A stretch of DNA of 64,000 nucleotides from assembly GCA_016179745.1 (NCBI GenBank), contig JACPCP010000019.1, positions 3,190 to 67,189 of the forward strand, given 5' to 3'. Shown here one piece after another: positions 3,984 through 28,178 of this stretch. This DNA comes from Candidatus Omnitrophota bacterium. GTDB lineage: Bacteria; Omnitrophota; Omnitrophia; Omnitrophales; JACQLI01. The notes beneath the pieces are model-generated. The model worked only from the letters and a program-made list of their open reading frames with translations, was not told where the DNA came from and did not search any database. Each line of letters starts with the position of its first letter. The stretch's first letter is position 1. The position numbers and the translations under genes were made by a program.

Positions 3984-3989
3984 GGCGGC

Positions 3990-10296: not shown

Positions 10297-10372
10297 GGTG
10301 AGCGTAGCTCAACCTGGTTAGAGCACTAGATTGTGGATCTAGGGGTTGCGGGTTCAATTCCCGTCGCTCACC
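10297..10372 (+). tRNA. tRNA-His (GTG)
   Basis: Extra 5' G(-1), acceptor GTGAGCG/CGCTCAC, anticodon stem CTAGA/TCTAG with loop TTGTGGA, T-loop TTCAATT. Confidence 0.9.
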
Positions 10373-10375
10373 CAG

Positions 10376-10665: not shown

Positions 10666-11778
10666 TTACCACTGCAGGTCATAATTGACACTGCGTCCTT
10701 TGGCGGGGTTTTGGCGAAGAATCCTTTTTTCAACCAAATCCGAAATTTCACGGAATGCAGTGGCGCGGCTTACCTTGGCCATAGAAACATACTTCCGGGT
10801 TGTCAGTCCTCCCTGAAAGCCGCCTCTCCCGGTGTCCAAGAGACGGTTTACAATCTTTTTTTGCCGCTCATTCATGACTGCCTGAGCATGTTTTTGCCAA
10901 AAATCAGCCTTGGCCAAAACATGTCCGATGATCTTATCTGATCTTTCGATAGCGCGTTGGTAACAACCCAGGAACCAGGTCAGCCAATCGGTCCTGTCAG
11001 CGCTGTTGGTCTTTGAAGATTTTTCGAGAACGCGATAATACTCTTCTCTCTCCTCCATGATTTGAGAGGAAAGGCTGTAATATCGCGTTCCGAGTTTTTC
11101 ATCTTGCGCGAGAGCCGTATCCGTCAAAGCGCGGGCAATGCGCCCATTTCCATCTTCAAGCGGATGGATGGTCACAAAATAAAAGTGGGCCAGCCCAGCC
11201 CGTAAAAGGCCGTCCATTTTCTGTGATTCTGAATTCCACCAGGAAAGGAATAGGCGCATTTCCTTCTCAACCGCTTCCCCCGGCGGGGCTTCAAAATGAA
11301 TTTTCTCGCGGCCTACCGGACCCGAGACGACCCGCATCGGCTCCTTGCCGCGCCACTGCCCAACTCTGATTTTATGGAAACCCGAATGGCCTGTCGGGAA
11401 GAGTGCGGCATGCCAGCCCTTCAGCTTTTCCGCAGTCAAGGGTTCCTGATAATTCTGCGTGGCATTCAAAAGAACTTCGATGAGCCCATCGATAGATCGC
11501 GTTGCGGGTCCCAACCCAGCCACAGGCAGTCCCAAATGCCTTGCAACCGACGAGCGCACCGCTTGCCGATTTAGTCTCTCTCCTTCAATCGCTGAGGTCG
11601 TTACGGCTTCTTCGGTAAGGATATCGGCTTGAGCCTCTTCTCCAAGCTCAAAGCCAAGGCGTTTGACTCGGCCAAGAAGATTCCCCTGCGCAAGCCTCGC
11701 CTGCCCCAGAAGCGGCAATAGGGAGTCGCTTTCCCAGGTCATTTTAGGCCAATTTTTAAGCTGCCAAATATAAGTCAT
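10666..11778 (-). CDS. Fic/DOC-family protein (class II, N-terminal inhibitory helix; DUF4172-type N-terminus)
   Basis: HPLEDGNGRIAR matches the Fic motif HxFx(D/E)GNGRxxR. TSAIEG matches the (S/T)xxxE(G/N) auto-inhibition motif. C-terminal wHTH-like tail. Confidence 0.9.
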   Translation of the reverse strand: MTYIWQLKNWPKMTWESDSLLPLLGQARLAQGNLLGRVKRLGFELGEEAQADILTEEAVTTSAIEGERLNRQAVRSSVARHLGLPVAGLGPATRSIDGLIEVLLNATQNYQEPLTAEKLKGWHAALFPTGHSGFHKIRVGQWRGKEPMRVVSGPVGREKIHFEAPPGEAVEKEMRLFLSWWNSESQKMDGLLRAGLAHFYFVTIHPLEDGNGRIARALTDTALAQDEKLGTRYYSLSSQIMEEREEYYRVLEKSSKTNSADRTDWLTWFLGCYQRAIERSDKIIGHVLAKADFWQKHAQAVMNERQKKIVNRLLDTGRGGFQGGLTTRKYVSMAKVSRATAFREISDLVEKRILRQNPAKGRSVNYDLQW

Positions 11779-11936
11779 AAACGCCTCATAATCGCTTCAT
11801 ATTTAGAAACAATTATGCCCTCTAATTGCTTCCTCTGCAAGGGGAAATAATTCAGGAATTTCGGCGTCTGCCCCATCTTGGGTTGCATTTGATTGTTGGG
11901 CTGAGAAGAAGGAAAAAAATATGGGATTTTTGTTTG

Positions 11937-12107
11937 CTAGGGCTCAGCAGGGACAATCTTCTCTAACTCTGCCACGAGAGGCTGGAGTTCCTTGATGACT
12001 GTGTCCCACACGACGTCTTCATCAACATTCATATAGTCGTGGACGACTTTATGACGCATTCCCACAATGGCCTTCCAGGGGATTTGAGCCCGCATAAACC
12101 AAGTCAT
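11937..12107 (-). pseudogene. truncated HEPN (DUF86-type) toxin remnant, 56 codons
   Basis: My own translation: MTWFMRAQIPWKAIVGMRHKVVHDYMNVDEDVVWDTVIKELQPLVAELEKIVPAEP. It keeps the Rx4H motif (RHKVVH) and the C-terminal helices but lacks roughly the N-terminal half of a normal ~110-aa DUF86 protein. Its ATG overlaps the MNT stop. Confidence 0.55.
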
Positions 12108-12409
12108 CCTTCTGCATACTGGACCTCAGCCTCGGTCAGGACCCGATTACGGATGCGGCGATTCAGGAAGCCCGGAGTCACCAAATCCGGGCGGTGCCCC
12201 TTCACCAGGGGGGAAAGTTCTTCCTCAATCTGATACAAACGGATAAATCCAGGTGTATGCCCTGGTTCAAACTCCACGAGGACATCCACATCGCTCGTGG
12301 GACGGAAATCCTCGCGAAGCACGGATCCAAAGAAAGCCAACCTTCGGATATGATTTCGGCGGCAGAATTCTGCCATTTTTATTCTGTCAATAGAGATTCT
12401 GGTTTTCAT
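12104..12409 (-). CDS. nucleotidyltransferase-domain protein (MNT-type antitoxin of HEPN/MNT pairs)
   Basis: 101-aa ORF; FFGSVLREDFRPTSDVDVLVEF = GS..(D/E)xD minimal nucleotidyltransferase signature. Confidence 0.85.
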   Translation of the reverse strand: MKTRISIDRIKMAEFCRRNHIRRLAFFGSVLREDFRPTSDVDVLVEFEPGHTPGFIRLYQIEEELSPLVKGHRPDLVTPGFLNRRIRNRVLTEAEVQYAEG

Positions 12410-12522
12410 TTTTTACGGCTCCGATTTGACCGAATTCTACCATAGGAATCGGACAAAACAGGCCTTTCTTTAATCTTCCTGCCAGTAACGCCCAAGCGCT
12501 GCCAGCAGGTCTCTCTTCCCGC

Positions 12523-12770
12523 TCACTTCCCCTTCACGAGCCAGTCCATCCACGCCTCCATCTCAAAATAACTCTGGAGGACCCCGAGCTGGATCAGGGT
12601 GTTGCGGTCATAGGAAAATCAAAGGTGCCTGTCCCCATTTCCTTCCATTTCCCTTCATCACGCACCGGAATAAACTTCTGCTTCGGCGTCAGCATCACCT
12701 TCTGCCCAGCTACGTACCGGAGCAATACTTCAAAATCGTGTGTGAGAGCTGTTTGATCAGAATTGTTCAT
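12523..12770 (-). pseudogene. small ORF translationally coupled to the nuclease gene, apparently frameshifted in a T-run
   Basis: ATG at 12770 overlaps the nuclease stop (ATGA). Frame 0 gives 58 aa (MNNSDQTALTHDFEVLLRYVAGQKVML...GTFDFPMTATP*). A protein-like continuation (FSYDRNTLIQLGVLQSYFEMEAWMDWLVKGK*) follows in another frame. Adding one T to the GATTTTCC run would join them into about 82 aa. Confidence 0.3.
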
Positions 12771-13438
12771 TTTGATCCCTGATGCTTTCCAAGCCAGGCG
12801 CAGTATTCGCAGGAACCGTTAGTGGCGGGAAGGGGTCCTCTTAAAAGAGCAGCCGCTTTCCGAAGGGTCGTCCGGGCCCGTTCCGGATCTGTGGAGATTT
12901 TAACGGCTTGAAGTTCAAAGAGAACGTTCCCTTGCTCCCCCACGCTCTTTGGTGAGTAGTAAAGAAGGAAGGCATAACCGGCAATCGGCATCTTGTTTTC
13001 GTGAAGGAGCAGGGTATAGCAATCAAGTTGATTCTGGTAATACTTGACGGCATCCGCTTCTGTCGTGACCGAGCCTTTGGTCTTGTAATCAAAGGGAATA
13101 TATTTGCCGTCTTTGACCAACAGGTCATCAATGGCCCCGCTTAAAATCGAACCATCGCCGTCCCGGTATTCAAGTCCCGTGCGCCAATTGCGCCATTTCT
13201 CAAGCTGCCCCTGATCTGCAAACAAGTTAATGCCGTCAAATTCCGTCTTGTTTAATTCGGCAGGCAGCAAACTTTTTGCCCGAAAGCCGTCAAAATGCGT
13301 CTTGATTACCCGGTCCATACCGCCGGGCAGAGAAGGGAAAATCCCTCGCGGCCGCTTGACGCTCTTGACTTTATCAAACCAGAAACACCTCGGGCATTCG
13401 AGGAAGAGATTAAGTGCAGACGGAGACAATCGAATCAT
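12767..13438 (-). CDS. Cas4-like PD-(D/E)XK nuclease family protein
   Basis: The ORF is open to 13525, but the likely start is MIRLSPSALNLF.. (13438). Has the D..(D/E)xK core (GAIDDLLV...IPFDYKTKG), the QxxxY-like YYQNQLDCY, and N-terminal CPRC plus C-terminal CEYC cysteine pairs. Confidence 0.8.
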   Translation of the reverse strand: MIRLSPSALNLFLECPRCFWFDKVKSVKRPRGIFPSLPGGMDRVIKTHFDGFRAKSLLPAELNKTEFDGINLFADQGQLEKWRNWRTGLEYRDGDGSILSGAIDDLLVKDGKYIPFDYKTKGSVTTEADAVKYYQNQLDCYTLLLHENKMPIAGYAFLLYYSPKSVGEQGNVLFELQAVKISTDPERARTTLRKAAALLRGPLPATNGSCEYCAWLGKHQGSK

Positions 13439-13578
13439 GGCTTTATTTGTGCCGCAACTACCCCTCTTTTTTGCCCCCGCTGCTTTGCCGTCCGAAGCCG
13501 AAAGGCAAACGTGGGCACGGCGCACCTTTTTCGGCGGACAGCGGCCTCAATCTGGGTAGTAGATGGTTTTTTGTCATT

Positions 13579-15441
13579 TTAACTGAAATTTACATCCTGT
13601 AAAAACTCAGAAAGGCCAACTTGGCTGTATCTTACTCCCCCAATGGTTACTGTTCGAACGCTCCGGGTGTAATGTCCACGAGACTGTCGGAAGGGTATAT
13701 TTCTGCTCCAGCTCACAGTCAACCCTTTCTTAGCTCTCGTAACGCCAACAAACAAAAGTCTGCGTTGTTCTTGTTTGTATTCGTGATCCGTCAGATATAC
13801 GGAGCGGTTATCGCCGGGGATGTTGCCGTCGTTGCATCCCATTATAAAAACGTGTTCTGCTTCCAATCCTTTCGAGGCGATAAGCGTCATTACTCTGACA
13901 ACTCTTCCTCGCGTTTCAAGTGTCCGAGAATAATCAAGAAATTTAGAATAAAGAATTTGGATGGTATCTCCTTCTTCTCTGAGTTCCGTAAATATACTTC
14001 TGAGGTCTGCCAATTCCTCGTTCGTGGATGGAATAATTTCATCCATCAATTCGCCCAAGTTTGTACTATCCTTGTGCTGCTCGACAAATTGCCTTATTTC
14101 CTGTAAGTGTGTGCAAAGTGCTCTAAGCTTCCTTTTCCGTCTATCAAAATCATCCCGATCAGCTCTTTGAATGGCTTCCCGTACATTTCCGTATTTCTGT
14201 TTCAGTTGTGCAAACTCAACGGAATAATTGTTCCGATTCTTCAAACCTGCATAGGTTCTTATTCTCAAAATGGAATTTGGCTTCGCAACGACACCAAGTA
14301 GAAGAATCTTTTCCTGCTCAATTTCGGAGTATTCGTTCTTTACGACAAACTTGAATGACAAAGCATCGGGAAGCTGTTGAGTTTTTGTATACTTTACAAA
14401 TTCAGCCCCTAATTTTTTTCGCGGGACAAGCACGATAATATCTTTTGGGTCTGTTTCATTCTGTATTCTTTGGAGAATAGCATTGAAAACAAAGCCGAAT
14501 TCGTCATCCTGTTTCTCCTTTTGCTCCAGCGAAATTTTTCCTTCAATGGCGTCCGGCAATGGCATCAAAAAGTTTGTTCTGCTTGGATTGCCTTGTCGTA
14601 GTAATTGATTCGCAACATTGAGAATTTTCTTTGCGCAACGGCCAGAATACGTTAGAGAGTGTTTTTCAACGCTACCTGATTCAGCAAGTGAAATTATCCC
14701 CTCGGGATAGGCATATTTAAAGCTGTATATGGACTGATCCGGGTCGCCCACAGCCAAAACCAGCTTGGAATTTGCGCCGAGCAAAGCAACGAACTCTTGC
14801 TCAAGCTTGTTTAAGTCTTGGTACTCGTCAACAAAAATATATTGGAGCTTTTCGATAAAGTCTGATCTGAGTTTCTTCGCCAAGTCAACAGCGTGATAAA
14901 CAATTTCTTCCATCATTGCCGCTTCGTGTTCATCAAGCCAATTTATAACAGCCGCCTTAAAACTTTTCCGGGCATCATCCTCATTAAATACTTCGTCGTG
15001 CGGTCTCACCGCCCATCCAGCACTAAATTCATCCAACATCCGTTTGAGTTCGCGTTTGTCGGTGCGGGGAAATAAGATCTTCAGATCAGAGAGGATTATT
15101 TGCTTTTCAAAATCTATCACGATTGACTCAACTCTTTTTCTAATATCGTGGTTGTCTTCTGAAAGTAAAAAGGAAAGACAAATCGAATGCAGAGTTGAAG
15201 CGCGAGGAACCCTGTCAAAGTCTTTTATCCTTTCTCGCAGGTCTTGGGCCGATAAACGTGAAAAGGAAATTATGAAAACTTCTTCCGTGTCAATTCCATG
15301 ATCCGCAATGATCTGCTTGGCTTTGGGCACCAGAATACCCTTTGTTTTTCCGCTTCCAGGTCCTGCGATAACGCAGATTTTTTGAGCGGACGAGGCCAGA
15401 ATTTCTTCAAACTGCGGGGTATTACCATTCATATTGCTCAT
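13579..15441 (-). CDS. UvrD/PcrA-like superfamily 1 DNA helicase
   Basis: 620-aa ORF with Walker A AGPGSGKT, motif II FVDEYQD, motif III VGDPDQSIY, later motifs LIASKGLEAEHVF and LLFVGVTRAKKGL. Markedly AT-rich compared with neighbouring genes. Confidence 0.9.
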   Translation of the reverse strand: MSNMNGNTPQFEEILASSAQKICVIAGPGSGKTKGILVPKAKQIIADHGIDTEEVFIISFSRLSAQDLRERIKDFDRVPRASTLHSICLSFLLSEDNHDIRKRVESIVIDFEKQIILSDLKILFPRTDKRELKRMLDEFSAGWAVRPHDEVFNEDDARKSFKAAVINWLDEHEAAMMEEIVYHAVDLAKKLRSDFIEKLQYIFVDEYQDLNKLEQEFVALLGANSKLVLAVGDPDQSIYSFKYAYPEGIISLAESGSVEKHSLTYSGRCAKKILNVANQLLRQGNPSRTNFLMPLPDAIEGKISLEQKEKQDDEFGFVFNAILQRIQNETDPKDIIVLVPRKKLGAEFVKYTKTQQLPDALSFKFVVKNEYSEIEQEKILLLGVVAKPNSILRIRTYAGLKNRNNYSVEFAQLKQKYGNVREAIQRADRDDFDRRKRKLRALCTHLQEIRQFVEQHKDSTNLGELMDEIIPSTNEELADLRSIFTELREEGDTIQILYSKFLDYSRTLETRGRVVRVMTLIASKGLEAEHVFIMGCNDGNIPGDNRSVYLTDHEYKQEQRRLLFVGVTRAKKGLTVSWSRNIPFRQSRGHYTRSVRTVTIGGVRYSQVGLSEFLQDVNFS

Positions 15442-15577
15442 AATGAGATGCTTGGCTTAATAATCTTAATCCTCTTCCCCGGCGTTAAGCTGAAGGATCG
15501 GAAATATGCCATGCTTTTCCCGCTTATTAGAACGGTCAACGTCGGGCATTCCGAGGCAGTTTTTCGGAGCGTGGATA

Positions 15578-18319
15578 TCAGGTCAGGGAATTTGCTAATT
15601 GAGGCTTGCTCACAACATCAAAAAGGTTCTTCGGATCATCCAGAACCTTAAACTCCCATTTCCCGAAGTTGCCGCTCGTGTTGACGGCGGCAATCCATTC
15701 TTTGGCGGCCTGCCATTTGGCCTTGTCTTGTTCCTTGGTCTGGCCTTTGATTTCGAGAATCAAATGACAATTGTCTTCAAATTTGATGATGTAATCCGGG
15801 TAATAGGTTTTGCTCTGCCCCTGCCAAAGATAAAAGATTTCAAAACCCAAATGGTCGTTCTTGGCCCATGAGACAAGACCGGGAATCCGATCCCGTTCAA
15901 ATTCAAGCCCGGCTTTCTCCCAGCCGCTGTCGATCACGATATGACTGATCTGGCTCTTTCTCACCGGCTGGGTCGGTTTGCTCGTATACCAGGTCATTGC
16001 GCTGGCCGTGCCGCGCTTCGGACGGACGGAATCGAGAACCGGAGTCGGTGCCTCTTTGCTCGAACTCCTGATAAAATATCCAATGTGGTTGATGATCTTT
16101 TGAACGTTAAGCGCGACGACGATTTTCCTTAATTTTTCCGTGCCGGAAAATTTCGGCACTTTGATATCCAGCTTATCCGAAACCAAAAATTCATCGACTA
16201 ACTGCATCAGCTGTCCTATCTGACTGCCGGCATCGCCTTCCCAGTTTTCACTAAATTGTTCCCGGAGACGGGCGGCCGCTTGAAGCTTCAAAGTCTGTAA
16301 TCGCTCGCTATCGGCCAGCCGGTCAAGATTCACTTCGCTGATTTGGTCGAATTTTGGCTTCCCGTCGATCACAGGAGCAACCTCAACAATCGTGGGGGCG
16401 TCCTCGGGTGAAAGTGTCAGTTTCTCAAGCTTACCCCAATCGAGATCAAGAAAATAATTGAGTTTATACTCAATCCGTAAAACATGCGGCCATCCAATCT
16501 CAAAATTTTTTCTTTCCGGAATAGGTGCTATTTTTGTCTTCGGCTTTTCAACGCGCGGGGGCCCCTCTTTTTGTTCCGCCGGCAAAAATGTGAACGGCAC
16601 ACCGAAAACCGTCACGTATTCGGGTTCATACAAACCCGTCTCTTCGTTGACATCATAGGAAATACGACGGAGGCCGCGTCCGATGACCTGTTCGCAAAGG
16701 AGCTGACTTGTAAACGCGCGCAGACCAAGGATGTGCGTAACGGTTCGCGCGTCCCAACCTTCAGATAGCATATTCACACCGATAACACACCGGATATCCT
16801 GCCCCGATCTGCCGACCTTGCCGACCGTGTTAAACTTCTCCCTTTCCTGTTCAACAAGTTCACGGCCCGTTTTCTCAAAGACCATTTTCTCCTCCTCGGC
16901 GGATTCAAGCTTATCAAGCGCGTCCTGATCGATCCTTATCAAACGATCGATATCGCCCAATTCCTCAATCGAAAGGTAACCCTGTGTCAATGAATGTTCG
17001 ACCCGTGCGGCCGTTTCAATGCGGTTGCAGATAATGATCATGACAGGCGGCGTTTCCCTCGGAGGATTTTGCTTTTCCCAGCTTTCTTTTTCTTTCAGCC
17101 AGTCTCCCCCCAAAATGTTCAGGGCATTTCTTACAAGATCAGGCAGGCCTTCGTGGGGCTGAGCCCTCCGGTTTAAATCCTCTTTCACGGAAGGATAAAT
17201 ATGAAAAAGCTTGGACTTAAGATCGGACCCGACTGCCGAATCGTCTCTCACTGCCACTTTGGGGGTTTTAACCAGTCCGCTTTCAATGGCATCGTTAAGC
17301 CCAAAATCGCTCACAACCCAAGTAAATAATTGTTCTTGCTGGTTCATCTTTCCCGTGGGTTTAAAAGGCGTAGCTGTAAGATCATAAGCCCGAAGAACAC
17401 CGCGTGCCTTATGAATCCGGTCGATACCGCTTATCCAGATAGTCGCTTTTTGCTTCTCGGTTTTCTCTTCGTCCTGATCGGGCCGGTGACAGTGATGGGC
17501 TTCATCATTGATCACCAAAATATTGGACGCATTGCCAAACTCGGACAAAACCCTTCGGGAGAAAGCTTCATCGCTTTCGGGGCCCTTCTTTACGACTTTC
17601 GGGCCGTAATTTTCATTGATAGGCGCAAGGGCGTGCCAGTTCTTAACCAGGATTTTCGCCTGTAAAAGCTCCTGCCACATTGCGGAATCGACTAAAACAA
17701 AACTCTGATAAAAATTTTCCCCATTTTCCGGCAGAAGAACCTGGAGCCGGTCGCGGACTGTCAAGCCCGGAGCGATGATAAGGATATTTTTTGAAAAGCG
17801 GGGATCCTTCGGGTTGGCAATTTTGTTGAGCGCCTGCCAAGCAATCAGCATGGCCATCACGACGGTTTTCCCAGTTCCTGTCGCAAGCTTAAGGCACTGC
17901 CGCTCCCATGCGCTTCCGTCGTTTCCGATCTCTATCCCTTGGCGCTCAGCAGCGCTTGCCTCGGTAAGCCAAATGGCCGTTTCGACCGCCTCCATCTGAC
18001 ACCAAAAGAGTCTTAGCACCCGCTGGCTCGGGTCTTGCCAGAATTGTAGAAGCTTTTTTGTCACGCCCGTGACATTCGGATAACCATTTTCTCGCCATTG
18101 TTTGACACGCGGGCGGATTTGATTGACCAATTCAATTTCAATGAATTCACCGGGATCGTCGAAATTATTCGCTGTCCGTGCCGTTGCACGCCAGTAACCC
18201 GACCTCCGGCGGCCCGGTTTTCTCTGAAATTCCTGAGTTTCGCGGATATAAAACCAGTGTTCCTTTGGCTCCCCATATGGGCTGTTGATGATTAATTGGT
18301 CAATGCCTTTTTGTCCCAT
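15578..18319 (-). CDS. res: type III restriction endonuclease, Res subunit (SF2 helicase + C-terminal PD-(D/E)XK)
   Basis: 913-aa ORF; ATGTGKT Walker A, VINDEAHHCH DEAH box, C-terminal PDYIIKF..LILEIKG nuclease motif; begins 4 nt after mod. Confidence 0.9.
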   Translation of the reverse strand: MGQKGIDQLIINSPYGEPKEHWFYIRETQEFQRKPGRRRSGYWRATARTANNFDDPGEFIEIELVNQIRPRVKQWRENGYPNVTGVTKKLLQFWQDPSQRVLRLFWCQMEAVETAIWLTEASAAERQGIEIGNDGSAWERQCLKLATGTGKTVVMAMLIAWQALNKIANPKDPRFSKNILIIAPGLTVRDRLQVLLPENGENFYQSFVLVDSAMWQELLQAKILVKNWHALAPINENYGPKVVKKGPESDEAFSRRVLSEFGNASNILVINDEAHHCHRPDQDEEKTEKQKATIWISGIDRIHKARGVLRAYDLTATPFKPTGKMNQQEQLFTWVVSDFGLNDAIESGLVKTPKVAVRDDSAVGSDLKSKLFHIYPSVKEDLNRRAQPHEGLPDLVRNALNILGGDWLKEKESWEKQNPPRETPPVMIIICNRIETAARVEHSLTQGYLSIEELGDIDRLIRIDQDALDKLESAEEEKMVFEKTGRELVEQEREKFNTVGKVGRSGQDIRCVIGVNMLSEGWDARTVTHILGLRAFTSQLLCEQVIGRGLRRISYDVNEETGLYEPEYVTVFGVPFTFLPAEQKEGPPRVEKPKTKIAPIPERKNFEIGWPHVLRIEYKLNYFLDLDWGKLEKLTLSPEDAPTIVEVAPVIDGKPKFDQISEVNLDRLADSERLQTLKLQAAARLREQFSENWEGDAGSQIGQLMQLVDEFLVSDKLDIKVPKFSGTEKLRKIVVALNVQKIINHIGYFIRSSSKEAPTPVLDSVRPKRGTASAMTWYTSKPTQPVRKSQISHIVIDSGWEKAGLEFERDRIPGLVSWAKNDHLGFEIFYLWQGQSKTYYPDYIIKFEDNCHLILEIKGQTKEQDKAKWQAAKEWIAAVNTSGNFGKWEFKVLDDPKNLFDVVSKPQLANSLT

Positions 18320-18322
18320 GTC

Positions 18323-20842: not shown

Positions 20843-20867
20843 AGAAATCCAATCGTTCTTAACGTGA

Positions 20868-21119
20868 TTAGAGAAAGTAACCTGTTAATGTACCGGTAGA
20901 GGTTGTGCTTGTGCCCACCATGATGGCCCTTTCACCGCTACCCGGATTAGAAGGGCGATGATCTTCCTGGTGGGTATGTTTTGACAAGTGCCCAATGTGA
21001 TCATGGCAATTACCACAGAAGGCGTAATAGACACTCGGCCCTATCTCAGCGCTAAAAAACAATATCGCCACCCCACAGCAGACGCATTTTAGAAATGATG
21101 AAGACTTATAAGAATCCAT
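20868..21119 (-). CDS. hypothetical small Cys/His-rich protein upstream of mod
   Basis: 83-aa ORF ending 25 nt before the mod start, on the same strand. Contains CVCCG..CGNCHDHIGHLSKHTHQEDH. No family recognised, so coding status is uncertain. Confidence 0.3.
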   Translation of the reverse strand: MDSYKSSSFLKCVCCGVAILFFSAEIGPSVYYAFCGNCHDHIGHLSKHTHQEDHRPSNPGSGERAIMVGTSTTSTGTLTGYFL

Positions 21120-21189
21120 GTGCTTTACTCCTTTAAAATTTTCCGCGCGTCATTTCACAAATTACCAGCAGCCTCAATGCTCTGGATAA

Positions 21190-21219
21190 AAAATTGCTTT
21201 GATTTTACCGCAGAATCAG
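21190..21219. repeat. 30-bp exact direct repeat, copy 1 (AAAATTGCTTTGATTTTACCGCAGAATCAG)
   Basis: Identical 30-mer found again at 24529-24558. This copy lies in the intergenic region upstream (minus sense) of the small-ORF/mod/res operon. The minus-strand read contains GGTAAAATC (a -10-like TAAAAT). Confidence 0.7.
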
Positions 21220-21305: not shown

Positions 21306-22343
21306 TCAAATCCGCACGGCGAGGGCGGCCTTGAGAAGTTCGTTTGTGAGGAATTTTTCGCCGGAGCCGGAGGAGTAGAAGATATCGGCGAGGTAGCGGT
21401 CGTATTTGTCGGAGCGGGTGCTCGAGATCGTAACGTAGGGGACGCCGGCGAGTTCGGATTCGACAAATTTCTTCGCGCGCTTCCCCGCGGGGGTATCGAG
21501 CTCCGGCGCATCGATCCCGCGCAGCCGGAGGTATTGGCGGGTCGAGCAGCCGAAACCGAGGTCGACCTCGGCAATGACGGTGTCGCCGTCAACCGCCCTT
21601 TCAATGAAGGCATAATAGGTGAAAAGGTCGGCCTCGATTTTTCCCGACGCCCGTTTCAGGCGGTAAGTGTCGCCTTCCACCCATTCGGAAACCACAATCT
21701 CGCCCGCCCGGAGGCCTTCCGCCCCCTTCATCGCGGCGTCCTTCCGGCTGGAAAATCCCAAATCGATCTTGAGGCCGGCCTTTCCGGGATGAATTTTTTC
21801 GGGGCGGGCCAGGCGGTAAGTGTAGGGGACGCCTTTCCGGGGCTGGAGGAGGGCGCGGTCTCCGGGAGGGAAGGTCCGGCCTTTTGATTTCCCGTCTTCT
21901 TCCCGGGCCTCTGTTTTGATTTTTTCAATCAGGCGGCCGGTGGTCCAATCCCCCTCTTCGGCACGGCGGGCCAGCTCAAAACGCTGTTTGTCGTCGGAAA
22001 CCGCAATCAGTTCGCGGTAGTGGGTCCACCTCAAATTTCTCCGCGCGGAGAAATTTGGGAAAGACTCGGCGAACCGCATGGTCCGGTAAAGGACCTTCTC
22101 CCCGATTTCAAGGTCGCGCGAAAGCCGGAGCACCACTTGTCTGCCGTATTCCGCATCTTTTTTGCCGGGGTAAGCGCGCCGGAGGTGGCGGTTGATGAGG
22201 TCCCCGGTGCGCCAGTAGCTGAGCACCTTCTCCCGTTCAATCCGCTGCTGGGCAAGGAGGAGGGTCTTTTTGACGGCTTCCCGGAGGCGGGTGTAGCCGC
22301 CCATCAGGGCGCTTCGAGTTGGGGTCAATGCGGTAGTTGTCAT
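21306..22343 (-). CDS. DUF1016 N-terminal domain fused to a staphylococcal-nuclease (SNase/thermonuclease)-like domain
   Basis: The N-terminal ~150 aa resemble the YhcG/DUF1016 N-domain (..VLSYWRTGDLI...AEYGRQVVLRLSRDL....LRWTHYRELI..DD..R..LARRAEEGDWT...L). The C-terminus has SNase hallmarks (VDGDTVIAEVD...LRLRGIDAPE...GKRAKKFV...DKYDRYLADIF). Confidence 0.75.
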   Translation of the reverse strand: MTTTALTPTRSALMGGYTRLREAVKKTLLLAQQRIEREKVLSYWRTGDLINRHLRRAYPGKKDAEYGRQVVLRLSRDLEIGEKVLYRTMRFAESFPNFSARRNLRWTHYRELIAVSDDKQRFELARRAEEGDWTTGRLIEKIKTEAREEDGKSKGRTFPPGDRALLQPRKGVPYTYRLARPEKIHPGKAGLKIDLGFSSRKDAAMKGAEGLRAGEIVVSEWVEGDTYRLKRASGKIEADLFTYYAFIERAVDGDTVIAEVDLGFGCSTRQYLRLRGIDAPELDTPAGKRAKKFVESELAGVPYVTISSTRSDKYDRYLADIFYSSGSGEKFLTNELLKAALAVRI

Positions 22344-22424
22344 AACGGCCGGAATCAGGCCGTTATTCTACTTCAATCGCAGGCCAAAAACATCCCAAGA
22401 AATAGGAACCCCTATCAGGAGGTT

Positions 22425-22748
22425 TCACCCTTTGAAGGAAACTTCGATCTCCTGGGCAACCTTTCGAGGCAGGAGGGTGGCTTTGATCTTCATGGTGTAA
22501 CCGATGTGGAGCAGAATCTTCTCGAGGGTGGTCACACTGGAAAATTCGCCGCTCTCGACTTTTGAAATATGCTGCTGAGTGACTCCGGCTCTCTTCGCGA
22601 GCTGGTTTTGGCTGAACTTGTGCTTGATCCGGTATTCGATGATCTTCTTTACGATCGCAAGCTTCTGCTCTTCCAGCTCGTAAAGCTCCCTGAAATACGG
22701 GTCCTTCAGCTCTTTTTTGAGATGGTCTTCAACCCGTTCTGTTCCCAT
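22425..22748 (-). CDS. higA: XRE-family HTH antitoxin (HigA-like)
   Basis: 107-aa ORF; HTH FSQNQLAKRAGVTQQHISKVESGE; follows the toxin gene by 13 nt. Confidence 0.75.
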   Translation of the reverse strand: MGTERVEDHLKKELKDPYFRELYELEEQKLAIVKKIIEYRIKHKFSQNQLAKRAGVTQQHISKVESGEFSSVTTLEKILLHIGYTMKIKATLLPRKVAQEIEVSFKG

Positions 22749-22761
22749 TTTATTCTTTTCC

Positions 22762-23109
22762 TTATTTCATTCCTTCGTCGTACAGTTTCCGTCTCTGAAC
22801 CGCCGTTTCAATTTCGGTCTTCGGGGTCTTATTCTTTTTCTTGATAAATCCGTTCGTCAAAACCGCCTTACCCCGATCAAAAAAGTATAAAACCCGAATC
22901 GCCCCTTCTCTTCCTGAAAACCTCAATTCAAAGACCCCTTCCCCGAGACGCTTTGCATGGGGCATTGGAAGCCGGTGTCCGAATTCCTCCAGCAGCCTCC
23001 GGACATAGAAGAATTTCAACCGGGTCCTCATGTCTAAAGAATCGATAAACTCTTCCACTGGGAGCCGGCCGGAGCCGGTCGAAAAATAATGGCAGACGAC
23101 GCCCGTCAT
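22762..23109 (-). CDS. higB: RelE/ParE-superfamily toxin (HigB / phage Gp49-like, DUF891)
   Basis: 115-aa ORF; ..VEEFIDSLD...R.K......LEEFG...P.PHAKRL.EGVFELRF....AIRVLYFF..GKAVLTNGFIKK..KTP.. pattern of Gp49-like toxins; toxin-first order typical of higBA. Confidence 0.75.
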   Translation of the reverse strand: MTGVVCHYFSTGSGRLPVEEFIDSLDMRTRLKFFYVRRLLEEFGHRLPMPHAKRLGEGVFELRFSGREGAIRVLYFFDRGKAVLTNGFIKKKNKTPKTEIETAVQRRKLYDEGMK

Positions 23110-23261
23110 GGAAATCTCTCCTTCTTGGGATGAAATAAAATGAAGCTTGAATTAGGTTCATTTCGATGGACCTCCTGCCAAAGGATACAACCAATCAGTT
23201 GTAATTTCAAGGGGTCTCTTCCAGTCCTAGCTGCGGCAATGATTGCCACAAAACCCTCCTT

Positions 23262-23391
23262 TTTGGTTCGGAGGGCAAGGCGGGATCTTCCGGCTTTTAT
23301 GCACCCGGCACCGATGTGCCGAGTACCGTCACGCAAGGACCAAGGAAGTCCTTGCGTTCCGGCAGGACGATGAAATCGCCCGCAACCCTGA
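23262..23391. repeat. structured intergenic repeat, copy A
   Basis: Shares a 77-bp identical core (23287-23363) with copy B (24335-24411): CTTCCGGCTTTTATGCACCCGGCACCGATGTGCCGAGTACCGTCACGCAAGGACCAAGGAAGTCCTTGCGTTCCGGC. The core contains hairpins GGCAC-cgat-GTGCC and ACGCAAGGAC-caaggaa-GTCCTTGCGT. The flanks are similar but have indels. Confidence 0.8.
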
Positions 23392-23396
23392 AGCGG

Positions 23397-23657
23397 TTAA
23401 AATTTTACCAAAGACCGGCGTTTTCTTCGAGATGAAAGGCTAACGGGAATAAAATTTATCGTCCCCCAAAGGCCGCAACGGGGACAGACGGTGGGAACAG
23501 GGTTCCTTTGCAACTGCTCATATCGATTCTTCATCCATTGAGGTGCGTAGGAAATCATGTCTGCCTGTTCCGACATCGTTCCCACACTGTAAGTGTATCG
23601 AGGCCAGAATTGAAATTCGAGCCCCCGGTATCGGCACTTCCGGCAGCGGTAGAACAT
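23397..23657 (-). CDS. hypothetical zinc-ribbon protein (third gene of the brnTA-like operon)
   Basis: The ORF is open to 23678, but the likely start is MFYRCRKCRY.. at 23657, 4 nt after the brnA stop. Two CxxC pairs (CRKC ... CPRC). No family recognised. Confidence 0.45.
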   Translation of the reverse strand: MFYRCRKCRYRGLEFQFWPRYTYSVGTMSEQADMISYAPQWMKNRYEQLQRNPVPTVCPRCGLWGTINFIPVSLSSRRKRRSLVKF

Positions 23658-23661
23658 CGAT

Positions 23662-23916
23662 TCAGGCCTGGGCGGCACGGTGAAGAAGCTCGGAGATAAA
23701 GGTCTGATATTTCACCCCGAGCTTTCCTGCCTTCTCTTTCAGGTTTTCGAGGTCCCCGCTGTTGACCCGGATATTGAGCACGGCATCTTTTCGGCGGGCT
23801 TGAATCGCCTCGGCGATCTCTTTGAACCGCTCCGGGCCTGAGTCAACATATTCTCCCCTCATGGCCGCTTCTTCGATTTCTCTTTCCATTCTTGTAAGCT
23901 TGATTCGTCTTTTCAT
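23662..23916 (-). CDS. brnA: BrnA-like (COG3514, RHH/CopG-type) antitoxin
   Basis: 84-aa ORF; C-terminal ..LNIRVNSGDLENLKEKAGKLGVKYQTFISELLHRAA resembles the BrnA RHH module; overlaps the brnT stop by 4 nt. Confidence 0.7.
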   Translation of the reverse strand: MKRRIKLTRMEREIEEAAMRGEYVDSGPERFKEIAEAIQARRKDAVLNIRVNSGDLENLKEKAGKLGVKYQTFISELLHRAAQA

Positions 23917-24170
23917 AGTTCACCTCGCTCGTATTTCTTTGTGTAATGCCTGCTGGGGTAAGCCGTCTTTAAGAATATCTCGCCCTCTCTCTCCACGAAC
24001 GGGACAACCCAGATATAACCCCTGCGTTCGAACAACATCAATTCTTGTCCGCTCCTTTTTGGGTGTTCCGTCGTCTTGACCAGCCGTTCTCCGAGGATCT
24101 CTTCAAAGGAAACCCCCCTCACCTTCTTGAGCCTCTGATTCTTGAGGGGGTCCCACCGGAGGGCCCTCAT
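23913..24170 (-). CDS. brnT: BrnT-like (DUF497) toxin
   Basis: 85-aa ORF; N-terminal LRWDPLKNQRLKKVRGVSFEE and C-terminal ..IFLKTAYPSRHYTKKY resemble BrnT/DUF497. Confidence 0.7.
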   Translation of the reverse strand: MRALRWDPLKNQRLKKVRGVSFEEILGERLVKTTEHPKRSGQELMLFERRGYIWVVPFVEREGEIFLKTAYPSRHYTKKYERGEL

Positions 24171-24198
24171 AAGACACCCCGATCATAACACAGCACGA

Positions 24199-24210
24199 TT
24201 GTATATACAA
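24199..24210. promoter_or_regulatory. perfect 12-bp palindrome TTGTATATACAA in a putative brnTA promoter
   Basis: Minus-strand read: TTGTATATACAA-tcgtgctgtgt-TATGAT-11 nt-ATG(brnT). The palindrome overlaps a weak -35, and TATGAT is -10-like. The implied leader is very short. Confidence 0.3.
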
Positions 24211-24307
24211 GTGTGAGCACTTGGAAAGACTTCCGGACGGACATAACAATACCCTCCCGACGTTTTTTGTCGTCCCAGGAGGCCCAAAGGGCCGACGTGG
24301 GATTTCA

Positions 24308-24453
24308 TTTGGTTTTTGGAGGGAGAGGCGGGGTCTTCCGGCTTTTATGCACCCGGCACCGATGTGCCGAGTACCGTCACGCAAGGACCAAGGAAGTCCT
24401 TGCGTTCCGGCGGGACGAAGCGGTTTGGGAAGCCGCAACGCCCGCAACCCTAA
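24308..24453. repeat. structured intergenic repeat, copy B
   Basis: See copy A. The 77-bp identical core lies at 24335-24411. This copy carries extra insertions on both flanks relative to A. Confidence 0.8.
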
Positions 24454-24528
24454 AAAATTATGGTAACCCTTCGCCCTGACTCGTCAGGGCTCAGGGCGTT
24501 GCCTGCCATGAAAATCTTGCAGGCAACG

Positions 24529-24558
24529 AAAATTGCTTTGATTTTACCGCAGAATCAG
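24529..24558. repeat. 30-bp exact direct repeat, copy 2
   Basis: Identical to 21190-21219. Lies between the abiEii stop and repeat copy B, and is preceded by two stem-loops (GCCCTGAC-tc-GTCAGGGC and GTTGCCTGC-catgaaaatctt-GCAGGCAAC). Confidence 0.7.
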
Positions 24559-24641
24559 GCCTTTGACCAATCAGATCTCACCCGTAAATCCTCACGGCTT
24601 CTACCGCTTGGGGGCATCCTTTGGATGTCCCCTTGGCTTTC

Positions 24642-25505
24642 TCATTGAAACCTCTTGTCGGATAGAATCGTGTTAAACCGCTCAATGACCTTCTCCAGAT
24701 CAAATTTTTCTCCGGCGCGAATGACCGGCATGAGATGCAAATCAACCTGGTTTCGCAAAAGCGAAAGCTGATCCGCATTCAACCCGAAATCTTTCCGGTA
24801 ATCTCCGGAATAGCCATCGCCGGAGAGTTTGCTCTTGAAAAGCTTAATGAAGCTGCTTTGATAAAAATCAAACCCGGACTCTGCGATATACCAGAGATCG
24901 TAATAATCCCTGGCCGCCGCGTCCCTGCGCGTAATAGCGGCTTTGAGTTTTTCGGCAATCGCCTCGTTTAACGAAAGAGAAAGAACTTTTCCGGGCGGGA
25001 ACAAATCCTCCCCCGTGAAGGGGTCCTGATAGAAGTGTTTGATGACATGATGGACCGGTTTATCAAGCGGCGGCTGGCGAAGAGATATCTCGAGCTTGAC
25101 GCTTTCCTCTCTTCCCATAATGACGGAGAGGTATTTCACTTTAAAAAGATATTGCGTTGAATTATTGAATCCATCTCCGTGAGGTTTATCGCTCGCCACC
25201 CCAAGAGCTTGCAGGAATTCCGGCATTTTCTCCCGGATGGGCGTAATGGCTTTTGACCGCTCGGAACGTGTGGCCAACTCACCGTGAAAGGTAAAATCCA
25301 AATCCTCGCTCAACCGGTGATAGTTGAGGTGAATTTTATTGAGCAGGGTCCCGCCCTTAAAGACGATTCTTTCGCTGAGTCGTGTTTCGATTTGATTGAG
25401 GATCACGGTAAGGTAATAATCTTTTTCGACGATGGCGGGCCGGAATCTCAGTTTGCCGGCAATTGCGGGAATAATATCTTTGAGCTTTTCTCTATCGATT
25501 GACAA
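24642..25505 (-). CDS. abiEii: AbiEii/AbiGii-family nucleotidyltransferase toxin (DUF1814)
   Basis: 287-aa ORF; FKGGTLLNKIHLNYHRLSEDLDFT motif and later Lys/Asp-rich motifs typical of DUF1814 NTases; overlaps abiEi by 14 nt. Confidence 0.85.
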   Translation of the reverse strand: MSIDREKLKDIIPAIAGKLRFRPAIVEKDYYLTVILNQIETRLSERIVFKGGTLLNKIHLNYHRLSEDLDFTFHGELATRSERSKAITPIREKMPEFLQALGVASDKPHGDGFNNSTQYLFKVKYLSVIMGREESVKLEISLRQPPLDKPVHHVIKHFYQDPFTGEDLFPPGKVLSLSLNEAIAEKLKAAITRRDAAARDYYDLWYIAESGFDFYQSSFIKLFKSKLSGDGYSGDYRKDFGLNADQLSLLRNQVDLHLMPVIRAGEKFDLEKVIERFNTILSDKRFQ

Positions 25506-26274
25506 TGACTTGCCACTCCTTATTTGTCTTCCCCTGCCGTGATGGGTTAAAGGGATTGAGAAGTACGATGGTTTTTGCCGTTCCGATACTTTTTTTCAAA
25601 CCTTCAAGCGACTTATTCTTGCACCCGAGTTCATCGAGTAAAAAACCGGCTCTTTTACGAACTGAAACAACGGGAAACTGTTTGAGATAGCGGATAAATT
25701 TTTCGACATCAATTTCTTTAAGAGCCGTTTGCAAAGCGGATTCGAAGTTGCTGATCGATCCTAAAGGGTTATACGCAAAGTCCACCAAGGTCCGTTCTTT
25801 ATCGCTGATACAAACTTCCTGATCTTCAATCTTGATTTTTTGAACACCGTAATATTTGCTTTGATCAATCTTGACCGCTTCATAACGAATACCCTGGATC
25901 ACGGTTTTGCGGGACTTCGCGGTATTTAAAACGAAAATGGTTCGCGGAATTTGCTCGGTGAATCCCCAGTAGTTGTACATCGTGAAATAACCGATATAGT
26001 AAGGTGCCTCTCCCATCCAAAGACTGGCAAGTATGAACTCATTCGGCATCCACTGCTGATTCGGCGCCTTGATCGGAACAAGCACATACTTGCCCTTCTC
26101 GATTTTAAGAAGACGTCCTTTTTTCGTAAGGAAGAACAAAACCCTGGATGCCTTATTTTTGTCAGGAAAGAGTTTTTGAACAAATCGGGTGGTAATGAGT
26201 TTTTGCTTTTCAAACTCCGCGCGAGAAATTAAATAAAGCTCGTCTTTTGAGAGATTTTTATAGCTGTTTTTCAT
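25492..26274 (-). CDS. abiEi: AbiEi-like type IV TA antitoxin / wHTH regulator
   Basis: 260-aa ORF; N-terminal wHTH-like segment (..ASRVLFFLTKKGRLLKIEKGKYVLVP); sits directly upstream of and overlaps the AbiEii gene. Confidence 0.75.
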   Translation of the reverse strand: MKNSYKNLSKDELYLISRAEFEKQKLITTRFVQKLFPDKNKASRVLFFLTKKGRLLKIEKGKYVLVPIKAPNQQWMPNEFILASLWMGEAPYYIGYFTMYNYWGFTEQIPRTIFVLNTAKSRKTVIQGIRYEAVKIDQSKYYGVQKIKIEDQEVCISDKERTLVDFAYNPLGSISNFESALQTALKEIDVEKFIRYLKQFPVVSVRKRAGFLLDELGCKNKSLEGLKKSIGTAKTIVLLNPFNPSRQGKTNKEWQVIVNR

Positions 26275-26354: not shown

Positions 26355-28178
26355 TCAAGATGCGGAGAGGCGGCCGGCCTGCTCATTCATTCGTTTCACC
26401 GATTCCGTGAAGGGCCATCGCTGGAGCGCTTCGAGAGAGAGCGGCAGGACGAGGCGCCAGTTCTTGTCATTGTCCACGCCGGGAAAATTGATGCGAAAAT
26501 TCCAGGGATCGGCCCCGATCGATTCCTCCAGCCAGAGCCAATCCTGTAAGAGTTGAATGCTAAAGATAGAGGCAGTTTCGCTGATCCGCTCAAGCGCCCT
26601 TTTGGCAATTCGATAGAAGTCCCGCTCCTTTGAATCCACCTGCAAAAATTTCAGAAATTTTTCCGTCTCGCCATAGGAACTCTGGTAAGCTGCCGTCAAA
26701 AGGCCCGCTTCTCCGGAAGACACCTCGAGAACCCGAAGGAAGGCCTGAACGGAATCGATTTCCTTTTTCCAGCGCAGGCGCCCGTAATGGGAATTTTTGG
26801 AGTCGAAGAGCCGGTCCCGCACTTTCTCGAATGAAACTCCCCGACGTTCGACCTCCCTTTGAAAAAGCCCCTCATCGATTGTCCCCATTTCATATTCCCA
26901 CCAGCCCCGGAGATTCGACATGTCATGCGTTGACAGGGTCGCAATGGAATTCGGCCGGTAATCCGAAGGCGGCCGGAAATCGTAGCTCCTCCCCCAGTCT
27001 CTGATCCACCGCTGGACCTCCATTCCCGGGAGCGCCCAATCCCTGAGCAGCCGGTAGGAACAATCGGGGACGATCCCCAAATCCTCGGCACAGGGAAGCA
27101 TCCCGGTTGATTCGAGAATCCTTAAAACCCGTTCCCTCCCCTGCCGCTCCCACACCGCTTCGTCGGGAGGATCAAAGGCGCCGTGAAGTCCAAAGTTCTC
27201 GAGGGGCTCTGAGAGCGGAACCGTCCAAATCCGAAACATTCCGACGAAATGGTCCATCCGAAACAGGTCATAAAAATTCTCCGCCGTCTTGAGTCTTTCA
27301 CGCCAATAGACGTAGTCCGAGGCTTGAATCTGGCTCCACTCATAGGGCGGCATGCCCCACCGCTGGCCTTTGGAAAAATAAGGGTCCGGCGGGGCGCCTG
27401 AGGCCCCATCCAATTTGAAGAGTTCAGGGTGCGCCCAGACATCAGCGCTGTCTCTTGAGACCAGAAAGGGAAGATCGCCCATCAGGAGAACGCCCTTCCG
27501 GGCCGCATATTTTTTGACGTCTTCAAACTGGCTAAAAAGCTGGTATTGAAGCCAGGTGTAAAAAAGGATCTTTTGTGAGTTTCTTTCTTTGACGGGTTCC
27601 AGGGCTTCTCTTCTTCGTCCCTTGAATTCCGCCGGCCAGTCAAACCAGCCCCGCTCCTGATGCTCCTCCTTCAGGACCCGAAACAGGGCGTAATCCTCCA
27701 GCCAATAGGCATTCGCCCTCACAAATGCGTCAAAGAGTGTGCCGGTTTTTCGTACGCCCTGGAAGATCTTACCAAGAAGCTCCAGTTTCACTTGCTTGAT
27801 GCCATAATCGACCCGGCTTCCCCCCGCCGGGAATTTCTTTTGGATCTCGTCCAACTCTTTCCGGTAGGGGCCTGGGTCAACGCCCGCCAGATTTTCAAGC
27901 GATAAATACACCGGCTCCAGGGCAAAACTGGACTGGGCATCGTAGGGGCGAAAATCAAAACCGGTGTCATTCATGGGGAGGAGCTGAAGGATCGTGAGGC
28001 CGGCCGCCTCACACCAATCGATGAGGAGTTTTAAGTCGGGCAGTTCGCCGATCCCTGCGCTTTGACGGGAATAGATTGAAAAAAGCGGCACGGCGGCCCC
28101 GGCCCGGCGGCGGAGGCCGATCTTCTCCCAGTATTTCCCGGAGGGACTCTTTAAAAAGTTTTCGTAGCTTGGTTTCAT
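26355..28178 (-). CDS. malQ: 4-alpha-glucanotransferase (amylomaltase, GH77) with C-terminal extension
   Basis: 607-aa ORF; GIGELPDL.., ..MGDLPFLV..DSADVW, DHF.G, CAEDLGIVP and STHDMSNLRGWW motifs of GH77. Confidence 0.9.
   Translation of the reverse strand: MKPSYENFLKSPSGKYWEKIGLRRRAGAAVPLFSIYSRQSAGIGELPDLKLLIDWCEAAGLTILQLLPMNDTGFDFRPYDAQSSFALEPVYLSLENLAGVDPGPYRKELDEIQKKFPAGGSRVDYGIKQVKLELLGKIFQGVRKTGTLFDAFVRANAYWLEDYALFRVLKEEHQERGWFDWPAEFKGRRREALEPVKERNSQKILFYTWLQYQLFSQFEDVKKYAARKGVLLMGDLPFLVSRDSADVWAHPELFKLDGASGAPPDPYFSKGQRWGMPPYEWSQIQASDYVYWRERLKTAENFYDLFRMDHFVGMFRIWTVPLSEPLENFGLHGAFDPPDEAVWERQGRERVLRILESTGMLPCAEDLGIVPDCSYRLLRDWALPGMEVQRWIRDWGRSYDFRPPSDYRPNSIATLSTHDMSNLRGWWEYEMGTIDEGLFQREVERRGVSFEKVRDRLFDSKNSHYGRLRWKKEIDSVQAFLRVLEVSSGEAGLLTAAYQSSYGETEKFLKFLQVDSKERDFYRIAKRALERISETASIFSIQLLQDWLWLEESIGADPWNFRINFPGVDNDKNWRLVLPLSLEALQRWPFTESVKRMNEQAGRLSAS

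Follow-up and report, generated by a model that had tools for sequence, protein, structure and literature searches.

A UvrD-type helicase gene behind a type III-like restriction cassette and beside a Cas4-like nuclease in a low-GC island of an Omnitrophota bacterium

Results

Genes at the locus

We analyzed a 64,000-nucleotide (nt) stretch of DNA from a Candidatus Omnitrophota bacterium (GenBank assembly GCA_016179745.1, contig JACPCP010000019.1, positions 3,190 to 67,189 of the forward strand; this whole stretch is called the window, and positions are given in its coordinates), in which a gene for a UvrD/PcrA-type superfamily 1 (SF1) helicase lies behind the genes of a type III-like restriction-modification enzyme. 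On the minus strand the order is mod, res, helicase, nuclease, a 58-amino-acid (aa) open reading frame (the mini-ORF), a MntA-like gene, a HepT remnant and a Fic gene (Table 1). An original prediction, made from the sequence, had joined the helicase, the Cas4-like nuclease and the mini-ORF into one candidate unnamed defence module, acting either autonomously or as an accessory that processes DNA cut by the adjacent type III enzyme. That reading is partly supported: the helicase is best read as a further restriction-associated UvrD-type accessory helicase, and the three genes probably do not constitute a single defence unit.

The restriction cassette has the make-up of a type III system, a Mod methyltransferase followed by a Res with a helicase-like ATPase, and the res start lies 3 nt past the mod stop. 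Mod matched the PADLOC family MTase_III (PDLC03632, 7.5e-158), and Res matched its NCBIfam model at 999.8 bits (cut-off 800) over model positions 2-965 of 970 and also carries the Pfam ResIII domain (1.2e-10). The helicase follows res after 136 nt, and the nuclease follows the helicase after 140 nt if its ATG start is used or 53 nt if a GTG start is used. As had been predicted, no terminator-like site was found on the minus strand in the res-helicase or the helicase-nuclease gap. Within 11.8-21.4 kb, no sequence comes closer to a sigma-70-like consensus than the promoter-like site listed in Table 1 (10 of 12 positions); it is a consensus match only and is treated here as a putative promoter. 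The motifs, coordinates, gaps, ATGA overlap and base compositions on which the prediction rested were all reproduced in the sequence.

Table 1. Features at and around the locus, in window coordinates
Feature	Position	Strand	Remarks
Mod, type III-like N6/N4 DNA methyltransferase, 839 aa	18323..20842	-	Pfam N6_N4_Mtase 2e-27
Res, ATP-dependent restriction subunit, BPTD_3080 family, 913 aa	15578..18319	-	NCBIfam NF046055
UvrD/PcrA-type SF1 helicase, 620 aa, ATG start	13579..15441	-	read as tail gene of the restriction cassette
Promoter-like site TTTACA-16-TAAAAT	13576..13603	-	overlaps helicase stop, upstream of nuclease
Cas4/RecB-fold PD-(D/E)XK nuclease, resident stand-alone, CxxC...CxxC	12767..13438	-	PDDEXK_1
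58-aa ORF, 5' stump of lost 251-aa gene	12594..12770	-	ATGA overlap with nuclease stop
Second inserted block: MntA-like antitoxin 12104-12409, HepT remnant 11937-12107, Fic/SoFic-like 10666-11778	10666..12409	-	assigned with Pfam, PADLOC and NCBIfam
Island remainder: DUF1016_N+SNase, HTH/Gp49 pair, CopG/BrnT-like pair, AbiEii/AbiEi	21306..26274	-	
GH77 4-alpha-glucanotransferase	26355..28178	-	core gene beyond island; Pfam 1.3e-120

The helicase is a UvrD-type protein distinct from housekeeping UvrD/PcrA

The helicase translation carries the motifs AGPGSGKT, FVDEYQD, VGDPDQSIY and VGVTRAKKGL and matched Pfam UvrD-helicase (6.9e-34) and UvrD_C (2.6e-22). Across 34 homologues, K32 of Walker A, D205 and E206 of motif II and R569 of motif VI are invariant, and the predicted structure (pLDDT, the predicted local distance difference test score, 86.8) reached a template modelling (TM) score of 0.77 to E. 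coli UvrD-DNA complexes. Judged from its sequence, the protein has the architecture and the invariant motifs of an active SF1A enzyme.

The original prediction held that the helicase is compositionally foreign and that finding it to be the housekeeping UvrD/PcrA of this lineage would count against the module. The gene has a G+C content (GC) of 42.4% vs 54.9% for the window, and its GC at third codon positions (GC3) is 0.42 vs 0.68 in core genes; the two 60-nt lines that start at 14041 and 14281 have 41.7% GC apiece, as against 71.7% for the purM line at 47401. Scores against NCBIfam were 140.9 bits for both Rep and PcrA (cut-offs 951 and 911) and 118.8 bits for UvrD (cut-off 1144). The helicase has roughly 3400 homologues. 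Relatives 50-94% identical, about 489-640 aa long (most 612-640), were found in bins named Nitrospiraceae, Berkelbacteria, Moranbacteria and Paceibacterota. The scores, the composition and this cross-phylum distribution rule out a housekeeping identity, and no second UvrD-like gene was found within the 64-kb window. None of the 120 best homologues has a nuclease domain or PF12705. A phage origin was also considered and rejected, viral contigs giving only three distant matches of 23-25% identity.

Orthologues of the helicase recur behind restriction systems

Eight independent genomic contexts of the helicase were readable, the window included (loci elsewhere carry our L numbers, and percentages give identity to the window helicase). 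In five of these eight, a restriction system, represented by a methyltransferase, specificity or restriction gene, lies directly ahead of the helicase in the same orientation, at distances from a 1-nt overlap to 136 nt. Besides the window, where the type III-like Mod-Res comes first, these are L017 and L179 (72-74%), with a PLD-SNF2 protein and a type IIG restriction-methyltransferase at gaps of -1 and 5 nt; L018 (54%), with integrase, DrmD-like and DrmMI-like genes ahead at a 5-nt gap and a PDC-M41A gene after; L099 (58%), with an Eco57I-type methyltransferase at 43 nt; and L100, L187 and L188 (54%), with GmrSD and a type I HsdR-M-S set ahead at 13 nt and a DUF2779 protein after. The restriction architectures ahead of the helicase are type III-like, type I, type IIG with PLD-SNF2 and DISARM-like. 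Because scattered orthologues recur behind restriction systems, we read the helicase as a portable tail gene or accessory of restriction cassettes, to which it is tied by position; five contexts, four architectures and one orientation argue for operon membership rather than loose clustering. The nuclease family of the window was present in none of the helicase orthologue contexts.

In the remaining contexts the helicase stands alone: in L016 (78%, after smpB), in L181-183 (62%) and in L102 (51%). These solitary copies, together with a distance of 136 nt from res and a GC under that of mod and res in the window (mod has 46.3%), are what one would expect if the helicase were a self-sufficient, single-gene defence or repair factor that gathers in defence islands without any tie to the adjoining restriction enzyme. 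Such a factor would not be expected to lie so close behind a restriction system in five independent contexts with four architectures, and we consider this reading improbable.

One context deserves a description of its own. In L018:241-13718, from a Nitrospiraceae bin, the helicase orthologue overlaps the next gene, PDC-M41A (a PADLOC candidate, 9.5e-70), by 4 nt, and beyond it come a spore-photoproduct-lyase-like radical SAM protein and then a Ser/Thr kinase; the gene set may be a larger composite system. We also compared the L100 DUF2779 and the L018 PDC-M41A proteins with the family of the window nuclease as possible kin, and the profile comparison was insignificant, with probabilities of 1.4% and 0.1%, respectively.

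The nuclease is a stand-alone family with a conserved chromosomal position

The nuclease ends at 12767 and is 223 aa long from the ATG at 13438 or 252 aa from a GTG at 13525. The ATG is the better start because orthologues begin there and the gene calls of sister contigs use it. The protein matched Pfam PDDEXK_1 at 5.6e-14, and the invariant residues in the family alignment fall in CPRC (C15, C18), IDDLL (D104), DYK (D117, K119) and CEYC (C210, C213). The structural model (pLDDT 86.6) gave Foldseek matches to the AdnA nuclease domain (the best, 1.4e-6) and Cas4 (chains 7mi5 and 8d3l, 2.6e-5 to 1.6e-4), with TM scores of about 0.45-0.49, and also to MGME1, lambda exonuclease and RecE. With this active site and a RecB-like fold the protein belongs, at the level of the superfamily, to the Cas4/RecB-type PD-(D/E)XK nucleases, and the predicted fold suggests a role in end resection. 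The best PDB sequence match was Cas4 4r5q (E = 0.01), and the score against the Cas4 model TIGR00372 was 23.8 bits, below the equivalog cut-off of 65.

More than 1400 homologues of the nuclease were found; the best 120 are 63-92% identical, and the named ones are nearly all from Omnitrophota bins. In a scan with one genome per species at least 197 loci were found to carry the nuclease, and with the window helicase as query no UvrD-like helicase was detected within 10 kb on each side at any of the 80 best loci. An exhaustive profile search with the nuclease returned 330 clusters at an E of 1e-30 or better, and no fusion, to a helicase or otherwise, occurs among the 150 best cluster representatives, most of which are about 180-300 aa long (the longest 475 aa). 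Whether helicase and nuclease orthologues are conserved neighbours, a check put forward with the original prediction, came out negative in its joint form (0 of 80 nuclease loci and 0 helicase contexts), and what stood of the neighbourhood check is the location of the helicase at restriction-cassette tails in five of eight contexts.

The chromosomal surroundings of the nuclease are those of a resident gene. Within 10 kb of a nuclease orthologue, EF-P occurs at 16 and GH77 at 11 of the 80 loci, and a block of pdxJ, carbohydrate kinase, radical SAM, nuclease, cupin, DUF6941 and DJ-1 genes is common to 16-20 genomes. Downstream, L019 is collinear with the window, with nuclease (80% identical), DUF4912, GH57, S11 peptidase, glycoamylase, Cu-oxidase_4 and EF-P. 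In 61 genomes with a host GC3 of 0.12-0.81, the GC3 of the nuclease tracks that of the genes around it, with a mean difference of +0.004. A recent horizontal transfer was considered for the nuclease and rejected, since its identity between the window and L019 (79.5%) scales with those of EF-P (64%) and GH57 (66%); at greater distances the nuclease keeps 62-65% identity vs 33-38% for EF-P. This scaling with core genes fits a slowly evolving, vertically inherited gene and leaves the low GC3 of the window copy, given below, unaccounted for. Vertical inheritance with function unassigned has been described for solo Cas4-like genes in small-genome bacteria (PMC5704561).

The mini-ORF matches the front of a longer gene

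The 58-aa mini-ORF had no match in the Pfam, PADLOC or NCBIfam libraries. In L011-13, the nuclease (87% identical) has a stop that overlaps the start of a 251-aa gene, and residues 1-37 of the mini-ORF are 84% identical to the N-terminus of that gene in L011/L012; the rest of the 251-aa gene gave no significant match in the window (remaining E >= 0.49). This agreement over 37 codons with the front of a gene in the nearest relative identifies the mini-ORF as a truncated 5' remnant. The block that follows it, MntA/HepT/Fic, is missing from the collinear L019, where DUF4912 and GH57 come after the nuclease. The mini-ORF would then be the 37-codon front of what was formerly the 251-aa downstream neighbour of the nuclease, cut short when the MntA/HepT/Fic block came in.

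Within that block, the HepT is 56 aa long and covers only profile positions 77-120 of 120, so that it is not a full-length HepT toxin, and both MntA and HepT are under their NCBIfam cut-offs. The HepT has the R-x4-H-x-Y motif intact, and its start codon shares an ATGA with the stop of MntA; we read it as either a minimal or a decayed toxin.

These results bear directly on an autonomous immunity module of helicase, nuclease and mini-ORF. All three are co-oriented, the nuclease and the mini-ORF share the ATGA overlap, the gaps hold no terminators, and the pairing of domains would be plausible for a helicase-nuclease system. Yet the trio was not seen at any other locus, the mini-ORF is what is left of a truncated gene, and the distributions of the stand-alone nuclease and the helicase are disjoint, which already largely refutes this reading; we hold it to be highly improbable. 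The other half of the proposal, that of an accessory which serves the neighbouring type III enzyme, fits the helicase, with its restriction-tail contexts; the nuclease and the mini-ORF are probably not part of the cassette.

Different restriction cassettes adjoin the nuclease in related genomes

The cargo upstream of the nuclease varies among relatives. In L019 a type I HsdR gene overlaps the nuclease by 11 nt. In L028 the upstream genes are a BPTD_3080 Res (50% identical), a methyltransferase, a Csa1-like nuclease, a BrxC/D-like ATPase, a group II intron reverse transcriptase and SRAP, the last separated from the nuclease by 6 nt. L011-13 carry another type III-like Mod/Res (26-29% identical), together with an AbiU2-like gene and another UvrD helicase. 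L098 (5450-12719), from a distant relative, has a type III-like Mod-Res directly upstream of a 53% identical nuclease. The L011-13 arrangement is the sole other helicase-nuclease adjacency, and it pairs a non-orthologous helicase (26% identical) with the 87% identical nuclease, at a gap of 13 nt in L012. That helicase belongs to a separate family of stand-alone proteins about 572 aa long; that it might be one half of a split UvrD-Cas4 fusion was rejected, as its 120 best homologues are about 515-597 aa long (mostly about 570) and lack PF12705.

Two of these loci show further features. In L028:14-9964 the Res is followed by the methyltransferase, the Csa1-like PD-(D/E)XK nuclease and the BrxC/D-like ATPase, that is, by other accessories behind the same restriction family. 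In L098 a 568-aa tyrosine recombinase lies just downstream of the nuclease, which may be inside a mobile element there.

We favour, with moderate confidence, the explanation that helicase, nuclease and mini-ORF are a juxtaposition of genes with separate histories, namely a mobile restriction add-on, a resident nuclease and a gene stump. The helicase would have arrived horizontally with Mod-Res, as a portable, nuclease-less protein that is the last gene of several types of ATP-dependent restriction-modification cassettes. The nuclease would be a resident, slowly evolving gene that keeps its place on the chromosome in Omnitrophota and candidate-phyla bacteria, and because its upstream flank repeatedly takes in defence cargo, any arriving cassette becomes its neighbour. 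The flank would then be a hotspot for insertion rather than a functional attachment point.

Several observations weigh against this explanation. On the side of the helicase, no restriction system adjoins it in three contexts (L016, L102 and L181-183), and its operon membership in the window is only inferred, because it lies 136 nt from res and is AT-richer than mod and res. In L100, L187 and L188 a DUF2779 protein comes after the helicase, and members of that family combine a Cas4-like region at the N-terminus with an RNase H-like exonuclease domain (PMC13621843, PMC3985635). On the side of the nuclease, restriction cassettes adjoin it in about 5 of 75 distinct loci (the window, L011-13, L019, L028 and L098, from lineages that are partly related), a frequency above a rough chance expectation of <1% per gene, which is our own uncomputed estimate. 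Two related lineages, the window and L011-13, have a UvrD-type helicase directly upstream of the nuclease. The GC3 of the window nuclease, 0.554, is 3.2 standard deviations below that of 40 core genes (0.684 +/- 0.040) and under each of them, and the GC3 of the nuclease is also drawn to island composition in L019, L012 and L098, precisely the loci where a restriction island adjoins it.

A rival explanation is functional co-option, in which incoming restriction/UvrD cassettes use the resident Cas4-like nuclease for end processing and are kept directly upstream of it and co-transcribed with it, as a split analogue of the UvrD-Cas4 fusions. Such fusions mostly adjoin type III Mod/Res (PMC5704561), which likewise speaks against a chance juxtaposition. 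Two non-orthologous helicases directly upstream of the same nuclease, the Mod-Res directly upstream of the nuclease orthologue in L098, the Cas4-like region behind the helicase in L100, L187 and L188, the island-like GC3 of the nuclease wherever a restriction island adjoins and the lack of a terminator between helicase and nuclease are all in its favour. However, >90% of the nuclease loci are without a helicase or restriction system within 10 kb, the nuclease is packed tight against any upstream gene (the HsdR of L019, the SRAP of L028), and most helicase orthologue contexts have no downstream nuclease. Cas4 fusions occur in neither helicase family, a promoter-like site lies ahead of the nuclease in the window, and the identity of the nuclease to that of L019 scales with neighbouring core genes, as for vertical descent. 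We therefore regard co-option as rather unlikely, though a possibility to be taken seriously, and retain juxtaposition as the preferred explanation. Exchange of islands by recombination inside the conserved flanking gene would account for both the recurrence of cassettes at the nuclease and the shift in its composition.

Relation to known defence systems

The original prediction had set the locus apart from named helicase-containing systems. Profile searches of the trio and of all island proteins with Pfam, PADLOC and NCBIfam gave no named system that matches the trio, and PADLOC found no GajA, OLD or HamA partner among nine proteins, in agreement with the claim that the locus is not Gabija, an OLD/UvrD pair, Hachiman or AddAB. 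The likeness to Gabija lies in GajB: the window helicase matched the PADLOC GajB model PDLC00117 (3.1e-55) over residues 16-580 of 620. It differs in that none of the nine neighbouring proteins matched GajA or an OLD-type protein, the partner here being a restriction-modification enzyme, and in that the helicase is nearer to UvrD, PcrA and Rep by sequence and fold; a GajB chain was absent from its PDB sequence matches and its top 50 Foldseek matches. GajB-like UvrD helicases are modular partners in other systems as well (type II Gabija GajC, DarHTG), and GajB has been proposed to be a DNA-end sensor (PMC13069673).

In AddAB, AdnAB and RecBCD, as here, a UvrD-like SF1 motor is combined with a RecB-family nuclease, but the present genes are separate, small (620 and 223 aa) and of unrelated history, and the helicase scored low against AddA (74.7 bits, cut-off 707) and RecB (54.9 bits, cut-off 696). 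An SF1 UvrD-type helicase is distinct from the HamB type of Hachiman, and HamA/DUF1837 gave no match to the nuclease, the mini-ORF or their neighbours. The nuclease resembles solo Cas4 and Cas4-like (pfam12705) proteins in being stand-alone and vertically inherited, with a Cas4/RecB fold and four cysteines; it differs from Cas4 in falling below the equivalog cut-off and in its CxxC...CxxC cysteines. The pattern in Cas4 and AddB, whose four cysteines bind an iron-sulfur cluster, is C...CxxCx5C.

A close precedent is the report of UvrD-Cas4-like fusion proteins beside type III Mod/Res, for which an ancillary unwinding/cleavage role in defence was predicted (Hudaiberdiev et al. 2017; PMC5704561). 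The present locus is like it in that a UvrD-family SF1 helicase adjoins a type III-like Mod-Res with a pfam12705-type nuclease next, and unlike it in that the genes are separate, 140 nt apart, and the nuclease comes from a separate, stand-alone, vertically inherited family. Because the fusions were already published in 2017, the combination of a UvrD helicase and a Cas4-like nuclease beside Mod/Res is not the unnamed territory that the prediction had supposed. PrrC in EcoprrI is comparable as an extra gene inside a restriction-modification operon that adds a second layer of defence (PMC12707154); it is an anticodon nuclease and detects when the restriction enzyme is inhibited, whereas the window gene encodes a DNA helicase.

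The low-GC island

The locus is part of a low-GC island (10666-26274; 48.7% GC vs 55.8% and 57.3% in its flanks) crowded with defence and toxin-antitoxin genes, with EF-P (3429-3989) and GH77 on opposite sides. No repeats bracketing the helicase/restriction segment were found. Just upstream of mod on the same strand (20868-21119) is an 83-aa Cys/His-rich ORF that is also called on the sister contig L002; its product has no family match and may be a controller or else a small membrane protein.

Elsewhere in the island, a perfect 30-nt direct repeat, AAAATTGCTTTGATTTTACCGCAGAATCAG, occurs at 21190-21219 and 24529-24558 and flanks a 3.3-kb block with the DUF1016_N+SNase gene, the HTH/Gp49 pair and the CopG/BrnT-like pair; the two copies may be scars of a separate insertion. 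The DUF1016_N-staphylococcal-nuclease fusion (21306-22343) matches the PADLOC candidate family PDC-S02, and its GC3 of 0.73 is core-like despite its position within the island. A second direct repeat of 104 nt (95% identical; 23267-23370 and 24315-24418) is intergenic between toxin-antitoxin pairs and had no match in Rfam. At the left edge of the island is a tRNA-His gene (10298-10373) with its 3' end toward the Fic/MntA/HepT block; no second copy of that 3' end was found anywhere else in the window, and an Rfam scan of 9.5-27 kb returned tRNA only. A tmRNA gene lies at 1375-1758.

Discussion

The helicase described here is found with restriction enzymes of several kinds, and its action on DNA can be pictured from its family. 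A restriction enzyme that nicks or cuts unmethylated DNA would provide ends at which the helicase could load and unwind, and the unwound DNA of the invader might then be degraded or be beyond repair. Alternatively, by analogy with the proposal for GajB, DNA ends might switch on the NTPase of the helicase, which would act as a DNA-end sensor. The unwinding would resemble the work of RecBCD, which in E. coli breaks down DNA that restriction has cut, and additional genes are known to ride in restriction systems (PMC12707154).

A bolder possibility concerns the nuclease. It might be a shared, resident DNA-end-processing effector into which restriction cassettes plug, with or without a nuclease-less UvrD helicase. 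We think this unlikely; if true, it would account for the co-oriented restriction cassettes of several types upstream of the nuclease in at least five lineages and for the drift of its codon composition toward that of the island at those loci, and it would make the nuclease a split, host-supplied counterpart of the UvrD-Cas4 fusions.

Under the preferred explanation, a juxtaposition of genes with separate histories, the locus carries a general lesson: two genes whose domains complement each other can become neighbours by accident, when an island inserts beside a conserved gene, and the distribution of each gene on its own is what tells the difference. What emerges is a family of nuclease-less, 620-aa UvrD helicases at the tail of four kinds of restriction cassettes in uncultivated phyla, a recurrence which, as far as sequence comparison goes, suggests that restriction is commonly supplemented by unwinding after cleavage or by the sensing of DNA ends. 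The highly conserved, stand-alone Cas4-like nuclease, in turn, would mark a site at which defence cargo is exchanged in Omnitrophota and candidate-phyla bacteria.

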